Of a stretch of 46,066 nt of DNA, positions 1,902 through 30,526 are shown one piece after another; position 1 is the first letter of the stretch, and every line of letters starts with the position of its first letter. The stretch comes from a virus, in IMG/VR virus record IMGVR_UViG_3300049927_000065, positions 1-46,066 of that record. One strand, written 5' to 3'. The notes under the pieces were generated by a model. The model did not search any database, was not told the DNA's origin, and saw only the letters and a program-made list of their open reading frames with translations. The position numbers and the translations under genes are program-made.

Positions 1902-3387
1902 TCTGTCGGCCCTCGCGGGCATGAGCGACGAGGAACTCGAACAGACCCTCATCGCGCTCACGGAGCACCGTAAGTTCAACTTGCTCGATTTCATTGAGCT
2001 GTACCCCCGCCAAAAAGAGTTTATGGCGATGGGCGCCCACAAGCAGGAACGGCTGTTCTTCGCTGGCAACCAGATGGGGAAGACCTTCTGCGGCGCCGCG
2101 GAGTGCGCGTACCATCTTACCGGATTGTACCCGGACTGGTGGGAAGGCAAACGCTTCGATCATCCGGTTCGTGCATGGGCCGGCGGCGTCAGTACGACTG
2201 CATGCCGGGAACAGGGCCAACGCCTCTTGTGTGGACCCCCGGGCATCGAAACAGGTTTTGGAACCGGGCTCATTCCGCGCCATCTGTTCGCCGACAAGCC
2301 GACGCTGGCGCGCGGGGCCGTGGCGGACGCTTACGATACTATCGCCGTTTGGCACCACATCAACGGTGTCCGTGACGGAATATCGACGCTCCAGTTCAAA
2401 TCCTATGAGCAAGGCCGTGAGAAATTCCAGGGAAGCACGCTGGATTTCATCTGGTGGGATGAAGAACCAAAGATGGAGATATACGTCGAGGGTAATGCCC
2501 GGTACACGGCAACCGGAGGCATGTCGTACCTGACGTTCACCCCGTTGCATGGCATGAGCACCGTGGTGGTGCGCTTCCTGCACGAGAGGGATGACCGGCG
2601 CGATTACCTCACGATGGGATATAAGGACGCCCTTCATATGACCCCGGAGAAGCTCGCCGACGCGATGGCGAAATACCCGGCGCACGAACACGACGCCCGC
2701 ATGAACGGCGCCCCCCTTCTGGGCTCTGGGCGTATCTTCATTGACAACGAAGCGACCTTCGTATACCCCGCAAGCCAGGTGATCCCGGACCACTGGCCAA
2801 AATTGTGGGGTGTCGACTTCGGCATCGAGCATCCCTTCGCGGCGGTCCTGATCGCATGGGATCGCGACCTTGACATCATCTACGTGATGCACACCTACCG
2901 CGCCGCCGGTGCCCTCCCCTTAGTCCACAGCGAGGCGCTGAGGGCGGTCTGCCCCGAGGCTCCAGTGGCGTGGCCGCACGACGGCAACACGCGCGTGGAG
3001 AACAAGCTGGGGGAGCTGGCGCCCCTCTACAAGAAGTTCGACCTCAGGATGCTTCCGAAGCACGCGCATTACAGCACCGGGGGATTTTCGACCGAGGCGG
3101 TGATCAAGGAACTCCAGCAGCGGTTCCAGTGTTCCGGCGGCCCCGGCGGTATCCGGGTGCGTGAAGACCTTGGCGACTTCTTCGAGGAATACCGCATGTA
3201 CCACCGCAAGGAAGGGTTGATCGTCAAGGAACGGGACGACATTCTCTCGGCGCTGATGAAGGCGGTCATGATGCGTCGCCATGCGCGGATCGTCACGATG
3301 GGCTATGCACCTCGTCCGCCGCGTGTCCGTCCGTCGCGTCCCGTGGGCGGCCGGATAAATCCATGGACAGGTCGAACAGAGTATTGA
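1891..3387 (+). CDS. terL: Terminase large subunit
   Basis: 498 aa. Walker A-like FFAGNQMGKTF, a DFIWWDEE Walker B-like motif, and a C-terminal nuclease-like half. Its position after terS fits. Confidence 0.9.
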   Translation: MMPDLSALAGMSDEELEQTLIALTEHRKFNLLDFIELYPRQKEFMAMGAHKQERLFFAGNQMGKTFCGAAECAYHLTGLYPDWWEGKRFDHPVRAWAGGVSTTACREQGQRLLCGPPGIETGFGTGLIPRHLFADKPTLARGAVADAYDTIAVWHHINGVRDGISTLQFKSYEQGREKFQGSTLDFIWWDEEPKMEIYVEGNARYTATGGMSYLTFTPLHGMSTVVVRFLHERDDRRDYLTMGYKDALHMTPEKLADAMAKYPAHEHDARMNGAPLLGSGRIFIDNEATFVYPASQVIPDHWPKLWGVDFGIEHPFAAVLIAWDRDLDIIYVMHTYRAAGALPLVHSEALRAVCPEAPVAWPHDGNTRVENKLGELAPLYKKFDLRMLPKHAHYSTGGFSTEAVIKELQQRFQCSGGPGGIRVREDLGDFFEEYRMYHRKEGLIVKERDDILSALMKAVMMRRHARIVTMGYAPRPPRVRPSRPVGGRINPWTGRTEY

Positions 3388-27377: not shown

Positions 27378-27602
27378 CTAATGGTATTGAAGGTCGATCA
27401 TCGCCGGCCACACGAATTGCTTGCCGGGGTCGAGCGGGGCAAAGTCTGCAGTCTTCCACACCCGGATACGAGCGATGTTCGGGCTTTCGTTCGCGTGGTC
27501 TAGGATATCCTGCACGCACGGCATGTCAGGGCAGCGCACGACTTGATGTTGCGGGTGCCCTGACATGCCGGATAGGAACAGCAGGACCACCACATACATC
27601 AC
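27378..27602 (-). CDS. Small secreted/membrane protein at the end of the lysis cassette
   Basis: N-terminal hydrophobic segment MYVVVLLFLSGMSG. The start (GTG 27602 or ATG 27599) overlaps the o-spanin stop. Confidence 0.5.
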   Translation of the reverse strand: MMYVVVLLFLSGMSGHPQHQVVRCPDMPCVQDILDHANESPNIARIRVWKTADFAPLDPGKQFVWPAMIDLQYH

Positions 27603-27913
27603 TTCACCGACAAGCCTTTATCGCGCCCGGTGTAGAAATCGACGGCGGCTTTGAAACGGAATTTGCAGCCGGCGAGCGCCGCGCGATCCGCTGCCCATCC
27701 GCGCTCCGCGGGGCCATCGTTCATGGCACCGTCCGGGATGGTGCTCGGCTCATCGCACGGTGCCGTCAGCGCCCCCGGAGGGGCGGCGTTCTGTAGCTCA
27801 ACGACCGGGCGGCTGTCCAGCTTGGCGGATGCGCCGCATGCTGTCAGCGTCATGACAAACGCGCTTGTCATTGCGAGCCGACAGGCGAGCGACTTCGGAC
27901 TTGAGGGACGCAT
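27599..27913 (-). CDS. o-spanin (outer-membrane lipoprotein, Rz1-like)
   Basis: Lipobox LTAC after a hydrophobic leader (MTSAFVMTLTAC-G). GGAGAAACGCA-ATG at 27913. The start is embedded out of frame in the i-spanin gene (overlapped architecture). Confidence 0.7.
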   Translation of the reverse strand: MRPSSPKSLACRLAMTSAFVMTLTACGASAKLDSRPVVELQNAAPPGALTAPCDEPSTIPDGAMNDGPAERGWAADRAALAGCKFRFKAAVDFYTGRDKGLSVK

Positions 27914-28190
27914 TGCGTTTCTCCGATGCAACAGCTTGGGCGAGAGAGGCCTCGGCCTCGCCTTCCGCCTTGGCGATGACCGCCTGACGCCGGGCGCTCT
28001 CGGCCGCCGTCAGCTTTTCCTGCGCGGCGACATACACGGCTACGGCCTGACGGCGCTCATGGACGATGAAACCCACGATCGCGCCGAAGGCCAGCAGACC
28101 GACGAGAACCGCCTGGCACGGCTTGCAGGACCGCACCTTGGCCATGAAGGGCAGCATGGGCAGAAGGTAGGGCAGCAGAAAGGCGATCAT
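27798..28190 (-). CDS. i-spanin (Rz-like)
   Basis: N-terminal TM segment(s) followed by a long Ala/Glu/Lys/Arg coiled-coil-like region. CGGAGGTTCC-ATG. Overlaps the o-spanin gene. Confidence 0.7.
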   Translation of the reverse strand: MIAFLLPYLLPMLPFMAKVRSCKPCQAVLVGLLAFGAIVGFIVHERRQAVAVYVAAQEKLTAAESARRQAVIAKAEGEAEASLAQAVASEKRNASLKSEVARLSARNDKRVCHDADSMRRIRQAGQPPGR

Positions 28191-28355: not shown

Positions 28356-29297
28356 TTAAGTGGCGCATTGATAACAGGGGTTGGCGCTCCATCCGTGGGG
28401 TAGGAGGTTGTTGAGCCATTCGTAGTTGCCCGCGCCGTCCGTACACCAAAAGCCGGTGTAGGTGTTGGTGGGCTCGTAGTAATCGTAAACGATACCGGAA
28501 CCCGCCACGGCGGGCCACCATGCCGGATTGTCGATCTTGTTGCCCGCGCCCGGCTGAGCGACCGTGATCAGCGTTCTGCTGTAGCCGTACACTGGACAGG
28601 ACCAGATGCCAAAACGAACCCATGTCGACGGGTCCCAACGGTTGATGGTTGACAGAACCCCACCGACGTAAACGAGTTTGGTGCCGTCTGGGCTGAACGC
28701 CGGCATGTCGCTTTCGGGGTAATTCGGGTCCGTATTAGGGGGGAGAAGGAATGGAATACCATATCCCGAAGTATTTACTGTGTAAATCTGTCGGCCATTA
28801 TTGGGGGAATTTGCGGCGAAAGCGCACAACGTACCGTCAGGGGAAATCGAACCCGGCTGCACTCCGTTAAGAGCGCTCGACAACGGATATAAGTAGGTTC
28901 CGTCTTCGTAAAGAACCCAAATGTCATCTCGCCCGGTTTGGGTGTTCCGAGCGTGGAAGATGATTTTGCCGGCGGCGTAAGATGGCCGAGCGATATTTGA
29001 CAACCCAGGAACCGTCGTGTACGCCAGATTCCCGGTGACGTGGTTGGACACCCCGATGGTCTTGCGATCGGCGGCTACGAACACCGATTTGTATATGTCG
29101 TTGCCAGCAGACCCGCGAGCGGCATCATACCCGTGGATATAGCCATTGGCATCCGTCCATCCCGGAATTTGGGTTGAGGACCAGTAATACTGAGTGTAAT
29201 AGTAGCTCCCAGACTGGTGAATGGTGGCCATAATGCCACTACCGTCATACCAGCACTTATCGAAGCCGACGTAGGAGTTGAAGTCGATGATTGCCAT
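28356..29297 (-). CDS. PD40/TolB-like beta-propeller protein
   Basis: 313 aa. PD40-type repeats SISPDGTLCAFAANSPNNGRQIYTV and PAFSPDGTKLVYVGG. GAAAGG lies upstream of ATG 29297. No N-terminal signal peptide. Local GC about 50%. Confidence 0.6.
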   Translation of the reverse strand: MAIIDFNSYVGFDKCWYDGSGIMATIHQSGSYYYTQYYWSSTQIPGWTDANGYIHGYDAARGSAGNDIYKSVFVAADRKTIGVSNHVTGNLAYTTVPGLSNIARPSYAAGKIIFHARNTQTGRDDIWVLYEDGTYLYPLSSALNGVQPGSISPDGTLCAFAANSPNNGRQIYTVNTSGYGIPFLLPPNTDPNYPESDMPAFSPDGTKLVYVGGVLSTINRWDPSTWVRFGIWSCPVYGYSRTLITVAQPGAGNKIDNPAWWPAVAGSGIVYDYYEPTNTYTGFWCTDGAGNYEWLNNLLPHGWSANPCYQCAT

Positions 29298-29301
29298 TCG
29301 T

Positions 29302-30162
29302 TTAACCTTTCTGTGAGCCGCCGTGACGGAGTTTCCAGACCACAAGGGCGACGGCGATTGAGGCGATCAGCATGATGGTGTCGATTTCCATGTGAACGCC
29401 GGTAAACATGGCTTGGAGCTTATCGAAGAGCTGCGTGCCGGACACGGCGAGAGTGCCGCCGATAGCCTTCTGGTGGCCCATCGTCCCGCCATCCGTCGCG
29501 GGGGCGGGCAGCTCCGCCACTACCGGAGGGTCAGCCGCCGGCCGCGGTGCCGGTGCGGCCTCCTCGTCGAGCCCGTCGTGAAAGGCCTTGGCGTAGCCAG
29601 CGATCATCGCGGCATGATCGCTGCCGTTGATGATGCGGCGTGCGCCATCCCAATCCTCATCGGTATCGTTGAAATATCGTTGCAGATTGACGCCCGAGAA
29701 GGTATCGCCCGGCTCGCCGGTCATTCCGTGGATCATGATCACAGCGGCGACCGCCGGTTCCATCGCGCGATCCGGCGCGCCGACCAGATCGATCCCGGTA
29801 AGTCGGGTCATTTTCTCGTAGTTCGTGCGCCCCGTGAGCTGAACGAACCCACGGCCGGCGAACTTCACCCCGTCGCCGGGGTTCACGTTTCCGAGCCGGC
29901 GGGCGAGTTCCGGGTTTTCCCCCTCGATGTCATAGCGCCGCTTGAAGTAGGCGTCGCCCCCGTACTCATGGACCGGCTGCATCGTGTGCGCGGTCTCGGC
30001 GTAGGTGGTGCCGAGCATGTAGCCCAACCAGCGCAGGTCGGTGGAGTTGGACGCCTCCCATGCGTCGAGAATGAAGTTGATCCCGTCGACCTGGGGCTGC
30101 TCGAAGCGCCCCCCGAATACGGAGACGCGGATGCTTGAAAAGAGTTTTCCCCGGTCGATCAT
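29302..30162 (-). CDS. Endolysin, glycoside hydrolase family 19-like, with C-terminal TM segment
   Basis: YAETAHTMQPVHEYGG...LGNVNPGDGVKFAGRGFVQLTGRTNY matches the GH19 catalytic core. A Pro-rich linker and the hydrophobic stretch TIMLIASIAVALVVW follow. Confidence 0.75.
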   Translation of the reverse strand: MIDRGKLFSSIRVSVFGGRFEQPQVDGINFILDAWEASNSTDLRWLGYMLGTTYAETAHTMQPVHEYGGDAYFKRRYDIEGENPELARRLGNVNPGDGVKFAGRGFVQLTGRTNYEKMTRLTGIDLVGAPDRAMEPAVAAVIMIHGMTGEPGDTFSGVNLQRYFNDTDEDWDGARRIINGSDHAAMIAGYAKAFHDGLDEEAAPAPRPAADPPVVAELPAPATDGGTMGHQKAIGGTLAVSGTQLFDKLQAMFTGVHMEIDTIMLIASIAVALVVWKLRHGGSQKG

Positions 30163-30233
30163 TTCTTGATCCCTTGTGAGAAGGCGAGCATGAGCGCGGC
30201 GAAAACGATGGCCGCGATGATGAGCGTGAACAT
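30159..30233 (-). CDS. 24-aa single-TM micro-ORF
   Basis: MFTLIIAAIVFAALMLAFSQGIKK. TGATG overlap with the holin stop and ATGA overlap with the endolysin start. Confidence 0.4.
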   Translation of the reverse strand: MFTLIIAAIVFAALMLAFSQGIKK

Positions 30234-30526
30234 CAGATCACCGCGATTAGTGCGACGATGGTTAGAATGAGCCCAGCACCGGATAGAAGCAGGATCAAAA
30301 AAGCTACTCGATCCTCCGCTATCAGCACCTCGCGCCGACGAACCACCCAATATAAGGTCTTCCACCGAATTCGCCATCTGCGGCCGGTATCGCTTTCCCA
30401 CAGGAGAACCGCGTACCATGCGACCGCGAACAGGGCGGCGAGAGGCGGCAAGACTTGACCTAGCACGCCCCCAAGGGCCGCGAGCGCGGCGCCATCAACA
30501 AACCATTCGTGACCTGGGCGAGACAT
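30233..30526 (-). CDS. Putative holin (97 aa, 2-3 TM segments)
   Basis: Hydrophobic stretches AALAALGGVLGQVLPPLAALFAVAWYAVLLW and VAFLILLLSGAGLILTIVALIAVI flank a highly basic loop. It is the first gene of the lysis block. No clear SD. Confidence 0.5.
   Translation of the reverse strand: MSRPGHEWFVDGAALAALGGVLGQVLPPLAALFAVAWYAVLLWESDTGRRWRIRWKTLYWVVRRREVLIAEDRVAFLILLLSGAGLILTIVALIAVI

Follow-up and report, generated by a model that had tools for sequence, protein, structure and literature searches.

How does an endolysin whose only hydrophobic segment lies at its C-terminus, and whose N-terminus carries no export signal, come to act on the murein? The question is raised by a lysis cassette in IMG/VR virus record IMGVR_UViG_3300049927_000065, analysed here from position 1 to 46,066 (46,066 nucleotides, henceforth the window). 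It comes from a T7-like phage, complete at ~46 kb, whose host would be Gram-negative, as the presence of spanins indicates. The cassette is complete, lies on the minus strand (as do all coordinates below) and comprises, in order, a putative holin gene (97 residues), a 24-residue reading frame (henceforth the micro-ORF), the gene for a 286-residue GH19 endolysin (29302..30162), a beta-propeller gene and overlapping spanin genes. Hairpins upstream of the holin gene were no better than those in shuffled sequences (z = -0.07).

The distal genes frame the problem. The i-spanin (130 residues, 27798..28190) has a transmembrane (TM) segment at residues 21-46 by Kyte-Doolittle (KD) hydropathy and then a region rich in Ala, Glu, Gln and Lys that to the eye looks helical, and homologues with 56-71% identity occupy the same position in three related loci (L001, L167 and L180). 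The o-spanin gene (27599..27931) overlaps it, probably starts in truth at an internal ATG, encodes an LTAC lipobox and gives weak matches to the Pfam LysC/Rz1-like family (2e-4) and to PHROG 456 'Rz-like spanin' (3e-4). With an N-terminal TM segment in the one and a lipobox in the overlapping other, the pair has the makeup of a two-component spanin of the Rz/Rz1 type. Between lysin and spanins lies a PD40-type beta-propeller accessory gene (Pfam PD40; 313 residues, 28356..29297), which has a 315-residue counterpart at the same position in L178, whereas in L001 and L167 a lectin-like gene takes its place; it is no part of the anchor device. Across all six related loci, a gene for a small TM protein precedes the lysin and spanins follow it.

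The GH19 lysin and its C-terminal membrane module

The preliminary description of this locus, made from the letters alone, had assigned the lysin a typical GH19 catalytic core, and the profile and structure searches agree. The protein matches PHROG 181 ('endolysin') at 4.2e-37 and Pfam GH19 (PF00182) at 1e-4, its 22.7 bits falling just under the gathering cut-off of 25.5; most of its homologues carry PF00182. PDB profile matches include the SPN1S endolysin (4ok7), 7r6s and many GH19 chitinases, the best Foldseek matches are the GH19 endolysins 9ms7 and 4ok7 (probability 1.00), and AlphaFold2 (AF2) models the catalytic domain (residues 1-198; 29569..30162) with confidence (pLDDT >95). A GRGxxQLTxxxNY motif is present, and E56, E66 and T110, which from general knowledge of GH19 enzymes we take to be the catalytic acid/base glutamates and the water-positioning Ser/Thr, are invariant in our alignment of 120 homologues. 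No deposited phage covers 80% or more of the lysin or of its GH24 sister P0123 (see below), and a single-protein scan of IMG/VR with the lysin returned relatives at 33% only.

By KD hydropathy the lysin has just one hydrophobic segment, at residues 255-281, and none before residue 255, in keeping with the earlier statement that an N-terminal signal or SAR segment is absent. The lysin's N-terminal stretch (MIDRGKLFSSIRVSVFGGRF) is polar and, in the AF2 model (pLDDT 96), forms part of the folded catalytic domain, which rules out the SAR endolysin class for this lysin. Internal initiation at Met229 had also been suggested. The residue in question is Met228; it is replaced by Thr in L001/P0002 and by Val in P0126, and since the Met is not conserved and only a weak GGCGGGA lies ahead of it, an internal start there is unsupported.

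The Pro/Ala-rich linker (EEAAPAPRPAADPPVVAELPAPA) and the TM helix (TIMLIASIAVALVVW, residues 262-276) that had been noticed beyond the core are both present in the translation. We called TM segments by combining hydropathy scales (KD and Hessa) with the AF2 model. The spacer (residues 199-261; 29380..29568) consists of a disordered Pro/Ala/Glu-rich linker, a small-residue stretch (AIGGTLAVSGT), a weak amphipathic helix and an acidic EID just before the TM helix. In the model, residues 199-241 are disordered, the weak helix spans 242-253 (pLDDT ~63) and a confident helix follows at 260-280 (pLDDT 85-90), so that the spacer measures 63 residues by the AF2 boundary and 58 in our scan of tailed lysins. 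The proximal spacer segment, with a summed Hessa dG of +7 to +11, is too polar for a TM helix. The TM core (residues 262-276; 29335..29379) has a KD value of 2.33. Because it is only 15 residues long and, with the flanking D and K counted, scores a marginal +3.1 kcal/mol when Hessa values are simply summed, stable membrane insertion is not certain. The protein ends in a cationic tail, KLRHGGSQKG (residues 277-286; 29302..29334 with the stop codon).

The 12 residues ahead of the TM helix carry a net charge of -2 and those behind it one of +3, and this acidic-before, basic-after pattern around a single span argues for an N-out topology. The pattern recurs in a set of 16 tailed lysins with GH19, GH24 or PHA02564 catalytic domains: the tail is net positive in 15 of them, the preceding 12 residues have a net charge of zero or below in 15, and the spacer ranges from 36 to 72 residues (median 55). 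A sorting signal of the PEP-CTERM, GlyGly-CTERM or LPXTG type was considered and rejected, since the tail has no NCBIfam or Pfam match and the protein no signal peptide; nor did the module show similarity to the holin families in PHROGs and Pfam. Hydropathy and model together support a genuine C-terminal membrane anchor on a lysin predicted to lack an N-terminal export signal.

Relatives of the lysin and exchange of its domains

Could the tail be a separate downstream membrane-protein gene, fused to the lysin by an assembly or sequencing frameshift? The preliminary description had raised this point, and we consider such an artefact extremely improbable, as the same uninterrupted frame occurs in independent SRA assemblies, both with the GH19 domain (L001 and L002) and in GH24 versions (L167, L168, L178 and L179), and 13 more distant homologue clusters share the layout. 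The full-length homologue P0002 is present on two assemblies. We found nothing in support of a frameshift.

It is also not the case that homologues always end before the linker: among the 120 best homologue clusters of the lysin, 13 carry linker, TM segment and basic tail. About eight of the 120 have a linker and an amphipathic C-terminal helix (e.g. GGFFYAALKNLLEALFGRKA) instead of the TM helix, and six proteins (P0064, P0087, P0089, P0104, P0079 and P0034) have two hydrophobic segments split by a short turn. In a tree of the catalytic domain that includes 111 of the top 120 homologues, no fewer than eight changes in the TM-tail state are required, and well-supported branches force at least two of them.

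A search with the spacer and TM region only placed the module on a GH24 protein, P0123, at 87% identity (86% by our own alignment), and it stands on a second GH24 protein, P0126, at 63%. Because the same module follows an unrelated GH24 lysozyme domain in these sister phages, the catalytic domain has been exchanged on a constant anchor. Spacer, TM helix and tail are thus, as far as sequence and model tell, a portable C-terminal membrane module made up of a weak amphipathic helix, one TM helix and a cationic tail. Three types of upstream 'holin' are interchangeable within the clade while the module stays constant. HMMER over 1.84 billion representatives returned the tail on P0001 and P0126 only, a metagenome scan with the tail alignment gave 0 confirmed cases, and the DNA pattern GCCTTCTCACAAGGGAT had only two chance matches in IMG/VR (L169 and L170). 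Two tail-less relatives (L180 and L182) have an extra gene for a 63-71-residue two-TM protein after the lysin; this gene (71 aa) was considered as a tail homologue and rejected, as no homology was found.

The small membrane proteins upstream of the lysin

The 97-residue frame (30233..30526) had been called the holin. In size, in its two hydrophobic segments (about residues 14-43 and 72-97) around a strongly basic loop, and in its position next to the endolysin gene, the product looks the part. The label is not borne out by the rest: the protein ends inside its second TM segment (...IVALIAVI), so that the charged C-terminal tail is absent, it matches no Pfam, PHROG or NCBIfam family, and it has no homologue at E<=1 among 5.8 billion proteins. 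We treat it as an orphan and, from its position and topology, a putative holin.

The micro-ORF (30159..30233), a 24-residue hydrophobic frame said to be locked to both neighbours, proved to be just that. Its junctions read ...ATC TGATG TTC... and ...AAG AAATGATC..., the ATG overlapping the holin stop (TGATG) and the stop overlapping the lysin start (ATGA). The product (MFTLIIAAIVFAALMLAFSQGIKK) is predicted to form one TM helix with a C-terminal KK. Among 296 ATG-to-stop stretches of 20-40 codons in the six frames of the window, it is the sole one with a 17-residue window of KD >= 2.5. Five of the six related loci (the window's own, L001, L167, L178 and L180) have the micro-ORF, with overlaps and hydrophobicity kept; its dN/dS is 0.26-0.79, GC3 0.72-0.83 and GC2 0.28-0.44. 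Its 3' end holds the Shine-Dalgarno-like AAGGGA of the lysin, no Shine-Dalgarno sequence lies ahead of the micro-ORF itself, and the product belongs to no PHROG, Pfam or NCBIfam family. A longer, 86-residue frame around it was set aside in favour of the 24-codon ORF, since its extensions are Arg-rich and unconserved between loci and GC3 there is ~0.47.

One might suppose that the micro-ORF has no peptide function and is a translated spacer that couples ribosomes from holin to lysin and houses the lysin ribosome-binding site, its hydrophobicity being incidental. The 14-nt block at its 3' end (GCCTTCTCACAAGG), which includes the AAGG Shine-Dalgarno core, is indeed invariant even at synonymous sites, dN/dS reaches 0.56-0.79 in two of three pairs, and L182 has no such ORF, the holin gene there directly overlapping the lysin start; the missing Shine-Dalgarno sequence ahead of the micro-ORF also fits a mere spacer. 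Against this, nearly all replacements among the five diverged copies are hydrophobic; the length of 24-25 codons, an acidic/aromatic N-terminus and a dibasic C-terminus are all kept; the low GC2 beside high GC3 marks a hydrophobic coding frame under selection; hydropathy of this kind is found in just one short ORF of the 296; and in two other lineages (L020/L021 and L173/L174) unrelated 28-34-residue single-TM ORFs are ATGA-coupled to GH19 lysins. We therefore regard a function as spacer only as unlikely and the micro-ORF as very probably a real gene, judging by its conservation and composition.

What would its product do? Very small membrane-active peptides are known, among them pinholin S21-68, antiholins and type I toxins such as TisB and IbsC. 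The micro-peptide resembles such peptides in being a 24-25-residue single helix with a dibasic C-terminus, encoded in a lysis operon and coupled upstream of a muralytic enzyme; known holins are more than twice as large. A role as the specific partner of the lysin tail, as the preliminary description had it, is contradicted on both sides: L180 has the micro-ORF with a tail-less lysin, whereas L171, L175, L176, L131 and L050 have tailed lysins and no micro-ORF. Most likely, the micro-peptide would be a small membrane-active accessory of the timing step and not a dedicated tail chaperone.

A bolder proposal is that micro-peptide and spacer/TM module form a portable two-part membrane device, in which the 24-residue helix pairs with the C-terminal helix of the lysin and carries or releases the enzyme between them. 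The micro-ORF and the module flank the catalytic domain and do not change when the domain that they enclose switches between GH19 and GH24. Both helices have small-xxx-small motifs, namely A14xxxA18 in four 25-column micro-peptide copies (aligned by eye, WIN gapped after Met1) and, in the lysin helix, an invariant SxxxA in LIASIAV. If true, the device would represent a signal-peptide-independent, C-terminally directed route of export or activation; we hold it to be very unlikely.

Likeness to published endolysins and the route to the murein

The statement that known membrane-tethered endolysins are N-terminally anchored was incomplete. Endolysins with a C-terminal TM domain (TMD) were described between 2019 and 2022, namely those of Siskin (PMC6498227), M4Lys (PMC7143992), Enc34 (PMC8943055) and LysAP (PMC8879335), so that the question of a different export mechanism had already been raised in the literature; indeed, the Enc34 authors state the same export paradox and took the arrangement to be limited to Chivirus and relatives (PMC8943055). 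By its predicted architecture, the GH19 lysin is a GH19 variant of this class, with the same layout as LysAP and M4Lys/Enc34/Siskin.

LysAP, from Acidovorax phage AP1 (OM049504.1), is the closest cultured relative of the GH24 sisters P0123 and P0126 (54% over the catalytic domain). Like the GH19 lysin, it has no signal or SAR segment, a ~55-residue spacer, a single C-terminal TM helix and a cationic tail; a holin gene lies directly upstream of it, much as a putative holin gene precedes the lysin here. It differs in having a GH24 catalytic domain (T4-lysozyme type); in AP1, the holin and lysin genes as annotated are separated by a 9-nt gap, which leaves no micro-ORF between them, and no spanins are annotated downstream. 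The chi-like phages share a layout of PHA02564 catalytic domain plus C-terminal two-helix TMD (M4Lys of Salmonella phage BSPM4, Enc34 ORF39 and Siskin): catalytic domain, linker, weak or amphipathic helix, TM helix and basic tail, with a small-residue stretch and then a polar helix before the TM, as in the GH19 lysin. Their catalytic fold is unrelated to GH19, and their upstream gene encodes a 113-residue protein with an N-terminal TM, with no micro-ORF annotated. Spacer length and tail charge are 55 residues and +2 in LysAP and 51 residues and +3 in M4Lys, compared with +3 for the tail of the GH19 lysin. Homology of the tails is not demonstrable: BLASTP could not align the tail of the GH19 lysin with that of M4Lys (for LysAP, the comparison was by hhalign alone), and hhalign scored both tails at 14-15, compared with 8.1-8.6 +/- 1.5 for shuffles, at a probability of 1.5-2.4%.

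Two further systems are instructive. SAR endolysins working with pinholins (P1 Lyz, phage 21 R and phiKMV gp45) are likewise membrane-tethered muralytic enzymes whose action is expected to need membrane de-energisation, and phiKMV-like podophages have the holin, lysin, Rz/Rz1 order of this cassette; but the SAR domain lies at the N-terminus, has weak hydrophobicity and depends on Sec, and the enzyme becomes active when this domain is released, whereas the GH19 lysin has a C-terminal anchor and a folded N-terminus. The LysAB2 type we take to be a GH19 endolysin with a C-terminal amphipathic helix. Abtn-4, a GH19 endolysin of a Gram-negative phage, has such a helix and belongs to the same catalytic family as the lysin described here (PMC7936296). 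The helices of Abtn-4 and the LysAB2 type are amphipathic and not membrane-spanning, and are not known to follow a long Pro-rich spacer.

The explanation that we favour, tentatively and at slightly less than even confidence, combines an anchored GH19 lysin with holin-gated crossing, an N-out/C-in topology and an accessory role for the micro-peptide. The lysin, made without an export signal, would at first stay on the cytoplasmic side of the inner membrane, where its hydrophobic tail would hold it. Once the cassette's holin-type proteins, perhaps with the micro-peptide among them, had permeabilised or depolarised the membrane, the catalytic domain would cross and the lysin take the N-out, C-in topology dictated by its charges. 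While still anchored, it would cut murein, the long spacer giving it reach, and the spanins would act last, by membrane fusion. Several observations sit uneasily with this account: the 97-residue 'holin' is an orphan and lacks the charged C-terminal tail, the TM core is short and marginal, the Siskin prediction (see below) differs, several GH19 homologues have two clear hydrophobic segments, and homology to the LysAP and M4Lys tails is unproven.

Holin gating may in fact be unnecessary, because M4Lys and LysAP lyse without a holin when over-expressed. The lysin could instead export itself, its holin-like, membrane-damaging C-terminal module carrying the cis-linked catalytic domain across while the upstream proteins modulate timing. 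LysAP lyses alone when over-expressed, and its TMD is needed for lysis and localisation (PMC8879335); M4Lys alone lyses E. coli, a Sec inhibitor being without effect, and its TMD is indispensable and by itself bacteriostatic (PMC7143992), although the two papers disagree on Sec dependence (PMC8879335, PMC7143992). Toxicity or lysis by M4Lys and Enc34 ORF39 requires the full-length protein, and catalytic domain and TMD supplied in trans cause no lysis (PMC7143992, PMC8943055). The interchangeability of the three upstream 'holin' types beside a constant module points the same way, as does the two-TM gene after the lysin in two tail-less relatives, which looks as if the tail had been replaced in trans. 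The precedents, however, all come from over-expression in E. coli, no tailed locus is without a small TM gene upstream and spanins downstream, the module is unlike any PHROGs or Pfam holin family, and the two-TM protein encoded downstream shows no homology to the tail. On balance, we think self-export somewhat unlikely.

Alternatively, the tail might be an anchor or hairpin (N-in) that concentrates the enzyme at the inner membrane or at holin rafts, with exit through large holin holes and no N-out stage at all. The Siskin endolysin, with two C-terminal TMDs, is predicted to form an N-in, C-in two-helix hairpin (PMC6498227), the six homologues with paired hydrophobic segments and a short turn would suit such a hairpin, and the linker plus amphipathic helix of about eight of the 120 homologues is the design of cytoplasmic membrane-targeting sequences. 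In the GH19 lysin itself, though, the polarity of the proximal segment is far too high for a TM helix, the charges around the single span argue for N-out, and a simple cytoplasmic tether would not need an extended spacer of 55 residues. We judge a purely cytoplasmic tether decidedly unlikely.

Endolysins with a C-terminal TMD are a recently recognised class without an accepted mechanism for how a signal-less N-terminal domain reaches the murein. The relatives assembled here extend the layout beyond chi-like phages to GH19 and GH24 enzymes in uncultured T7-like phages, with the anchor as a self-contained module recombined onto two unrelated catalytic folds and the TM tail gained or lost several times within the GH19 family. 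Natural domain-swap pairs are thereby at hand, the same tail with GH19 or GH24 and the same GH19 with or without a tail, and the conserved 24-residue membrane peptide is a candidate accessory. In practical terms, lysins with such tails are toxic to the hosts in which they are expressed, and the tails are of interest for the engineering of lysins able to cross Gram-negative membranes.

The lysis block and its anchored GH19 lysin

The window is one entire 46,066-bp contig whose minus-strand late lysis block, of textbook type, holds both the lysin (286 aa, 30162..29302) and the 24-codon micro-ORF (30233..30159). ORF translation places a 97-aa two-TM ORF in the 'holin' slot ahead of them (30526..30233), followed beyond the lysin by a PD40 propeller gene (313 aa, 29297..28356), an i-spanin (28190..27798) and an overlapping, lipobox-bearing o-spanin (27931..27599), all on the minus strand. 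The holin/micro-ORF junction reads ATC TGATG TTC and the micro-ORF/lysin junction AAATGATC; the TGATG and ATGA overlaps given in the preliminary description are exact at both.

The 97-aa 'holin' has no homologue in 5.8 billion proteins, and three unrelated small membrane proteins occupy its slot in otherwise syntenic cassettes: the window type (97 aa, two TMs, 30233-30526), a 57-63-aa type with one TM (L001:250-441), and a 116-aa type with an N-terminal TM and a C-terminal region helical by eye (L178:269-619), the last having the same build as the holin candidates of chi-like phages and AP1. The slot after the lysin also varies. In L178 the GH24 tailed lysin is directly followed by a 315-aa PD40-type propeller gene (1397-2344) that corresponds to the 313-aa one of the window (28356-29297), while in the related loci L001 and L167 this slot holds a gene of 154 aa that matches no Pfam family and shows, by eye, a bulb-lectin-like DGNLVLY motif; a 175-aa, signal-peptide-bearing version lies after the spanins in L180.

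Profiles and structural modelling identify lysin residues 1-198 as a GH19-type muramidase domain. The protein matches PHROG 181 'endolysin' (4e-37) and scores slightly below threshold against Pfam GH19, a profile search of the PDB returned 4ok7 (SPN1S endolysin) together with many GH19 chitinases, and the best Foldseek matches of the model are GH19 endolysins. AlphaFold2, run with 120 homologues, gave pLDDT >95 for residues 1-198 and disorder for 199-241, and beyond these it modelled two helices, a weak one at 242-253 and a confident one at 260-280; E56, E66 and T110 are invariant family-wide. By hydropathy, the single TM-like segment spans 255-281 (core TIMLIASIAVALVVW), the linker-to-TM stretch AIGGTLAVSGTQLFDKLQAMF is too polar to span a membrane, and the N-terminus has no hydrophobic segment that could serve as signal peptide or SAR domain. 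Hydropathy and AlphaFold2 thus bear out the original observation of a GH19 lysin with a C-terminal TM and no N-terminal signal or SAR, which is correct and far above chance; the internal methionine placed at 229 is residue 228.

The tail as an exchangeable module

Judged from homologous sequences, the fusion of catalytic domain and tail is real and recurrent. The closest homologue, P0002 (67% by BLAST), keeps the complete architecture on two independent Logan assemblies, which upholds the fusion against a frameshift artefact. Nor do homologues always end before the linker: 32 of the 120 best homologue clusters continue past the catalytic domain, 13 of them with linker, strong TM and basic tail and about eight with linker and amphipathic C-terminal helix, others having PG-binding or other domains. 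In IMG/VR and GTDB genomes the TM tail is rare, being clear in only two of 160 loci (L131 and L050), and it has no match among deposited phages. On a catalytic-domain tree of 111 of the 120 top homologues, tail state requires at least eight gains or losses, at least two of them forced by well-supported branches, and the nearest catalytic relative, P0003 (74%), lacks the tail.

Several extended homologues merit separate mention. In about eight of the 120 GH19 clusters (P0082, P0100, P0093, P0086, P0047, P0058, P0067 and P0109), a Pro-rich linker precedes a short C-terminal helix, amphipathic by eye (example GGFFYAALKNLLEALFGRKA); helical moments support this reading for P0086 (0.50) and P0093 (0.38) and give no support for P0100 (0.13). 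Amphipathic and TM tails are steps of one graded series of membrane-binding C-termini in this enzyme family. Three close GH19 homologues (53-55% overall and 61-67% in local BLAST alignments) differ in what follows a VPxP-rich linker, a ~130-aa beta-rich domain in P0005 and P0011 and a coiled-coil-like region (by eye) in P0007. Domains have repeatedly accreted at the end of the GH19 catalytic domain, making it a hot spot.

A search with the tail only (residues 225-286) retrieved P0123, a 229-aa GH24 (Phage_lysozyme) protein whose spacer and TM module is 87% identical to that of the window lysin (86% in our own alignment), and a HMMER pass through 1.84 billion representatives brought up a second GH24 protein, P0126, whose module is 63% identical. 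The loci that encode these two proteins, L167 and L178, are syntenic with the window, from small TM gene, micro-ORF and lysin to accessory gene and spanins. GH19 and GH24 catalytic domains have therefore been swapped between constant flanks within one phage group. The alignment places the breakpoint at the very start of the linker, where LDEEA is common to both versions. In the sister comparison, conservation of the module (71-86% identity) matches that of the GH19 domain (75%) and exceeds that of the i-spanin (56-71%).

In both loci with a tail-less GH19 lysin, a gene for a 63-71-aa protein with two hydrophobic segments overlaps the lysin stop (L180:3594-3809; L182:1444-1635); the four tailed loci lack it. 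The protein has no homology to the tail, and the finding that each of the six loci has one or the other hints at mutual substitution.

A conserved micro-ORF upstream of the lysin

The micro-ORF is kept, with both overlaps, in five of the six related loci, its products being MFTLIIAAIVFAALMLAFSQGIKK (window), MFLLIITVFVFAALALAFSQGIKK (L180), MDWPLICAVFIAFALVLAFSQGMRR (L001), MDWPLIIAIFIELALVLAFSQGIKK (L167) and MDYPFICAILIAAALVLAFSQGMKK (L178). Nearly all replacements are hydrophobic, length and dibasic end are conserved, GC3 is 0.72-0.83, GC2 0.28-0.44 and dN/dS 0.26-0.79, and in hydropathy it stands alone among the window's 296 short ATG ORFs. Upstream extensions of the frame are junk, unconserved between loci. 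No Shine-Dalgarno sequence precedes the micro-ORF, which is therefore probably translated by termination-reinitiation.

The lysin's AAGGGA ribosome-binding site sits inside the micro-ORF. At the 3' end, the 14-nt block GCCTTCTCACAAGG (30165-30178, minus), which contains the lysin's Shine-Dalgarno core, is invariant in the window, L001, L167, L178 and L180, synonymous positions included; conservation is thus in part nucleotide-level. That the micro-ORF is a mere coupling spacer seems unlikely to us.

The micro-ORF stays constant while the upstream 'holin' switches among three unrelated types and the catalytic domain switches too. Going by gene content, it is not tied to the tail: L180 pairs it with a tail-less GH19 lysin, L182 has neither, and no such ORF accompanies the tailed lysins of other lineages (L171, L175, L176, L131 and L050). 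A role as helix partner of the tail is improbable. Two further lineages have unrelated single-TM ORFs of 28-34 aa with ATGA coupling to a GH19 lysin, which is tail-less in one (L021:2918-3004; L020 around 2915-3007) and tailed in the other (L173:1005-1109; also L174); in L173 the ORF comes straight after a tail-fibre-like gene, and no other holin lies upstream. We tentatively regard the micro-peptide as a small accessory that acts on the membrane in the timing of lysis, ranking the helix-partner reading second and the coupling spacer third.

Membrane topology and published C-terminal-TMD endolysins

The preliminary description had set this lysin apart from known endolysins. That interpretation is only half borne out: the architecture is real, its mechanism is unexplained, but a full-text literature search found C-terminal-TMD endolysins already published. 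M4Lys, from phage BSPM4, lyses E. coli on its own, and a Sec inhibitor does not affect it; the TMD of M4Lys is indispensable and by itself bacteriostatic (PMC7143992). Enc34 ORF39 joins a catalytic domain to a two-helix TMD, and its authors state that no mechanism is known for N-terminal domain export by a C-terminal signal (PMC8943055). In LysAP of Acidovorax phage AP1, lysis depends on the one C-terminal TMD (PMC8879335); among cultured phages, LysAP is the nearest to P0123 in the catalytic domain (54%). These published endolysins and the GH19 set share one design of spacer, TM and tail: in 16 tailed proteins the spacer measures 36-72 aa (median 55), and in 15 of the 16 the 12 residues preceding the TM are net non-positive, as many having a net positive tail. 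BLAST finds no match between the tail and that of M4Lys, and hhalign against the M4Lys and LysAP tails gives ~2% probability with scores ~4 SD over shuffles, so that homology of the tails is not demonstrable.

With architecture, modularity, charge asymmetry, spacer and a complete holin-type and spanin context established, the charge pattern around the TM suggests a stable N-out/C-in topology. A purely cytoplasmic tether, as an N-in hairpin, suits some homologues with two hydrophobic segments but fits the window lysin poorly. We favour a holin-gated transition, since the lysin lacks a signal for export and the cassette retains both its small upstream TM gene and its downstream spanins: the lysin would wait at the cytoplasmic face of the inner membrane, cross once the membrane is breached or de-energised, and cut murein within reach of its ~55-residue spacer, a length that would suit an enzyme acting while still anchored in the inner membrane. 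The main rival to holin gating is self-export, with the tail itself as the membrane-breaching element, for which the over-expression data on M4Lys, Enc34 and LysAP speak.

The literature yielded no description of a GH19 member of this class. What is new is the GH19 version (and sister GH24 version) of the C-terminal anchor in uncultured T7-like phages, the demonstration that this anchor can be swapped as a module, and a conserved gene for a 24-aa membrane peptide adjoining the anchored lysin.
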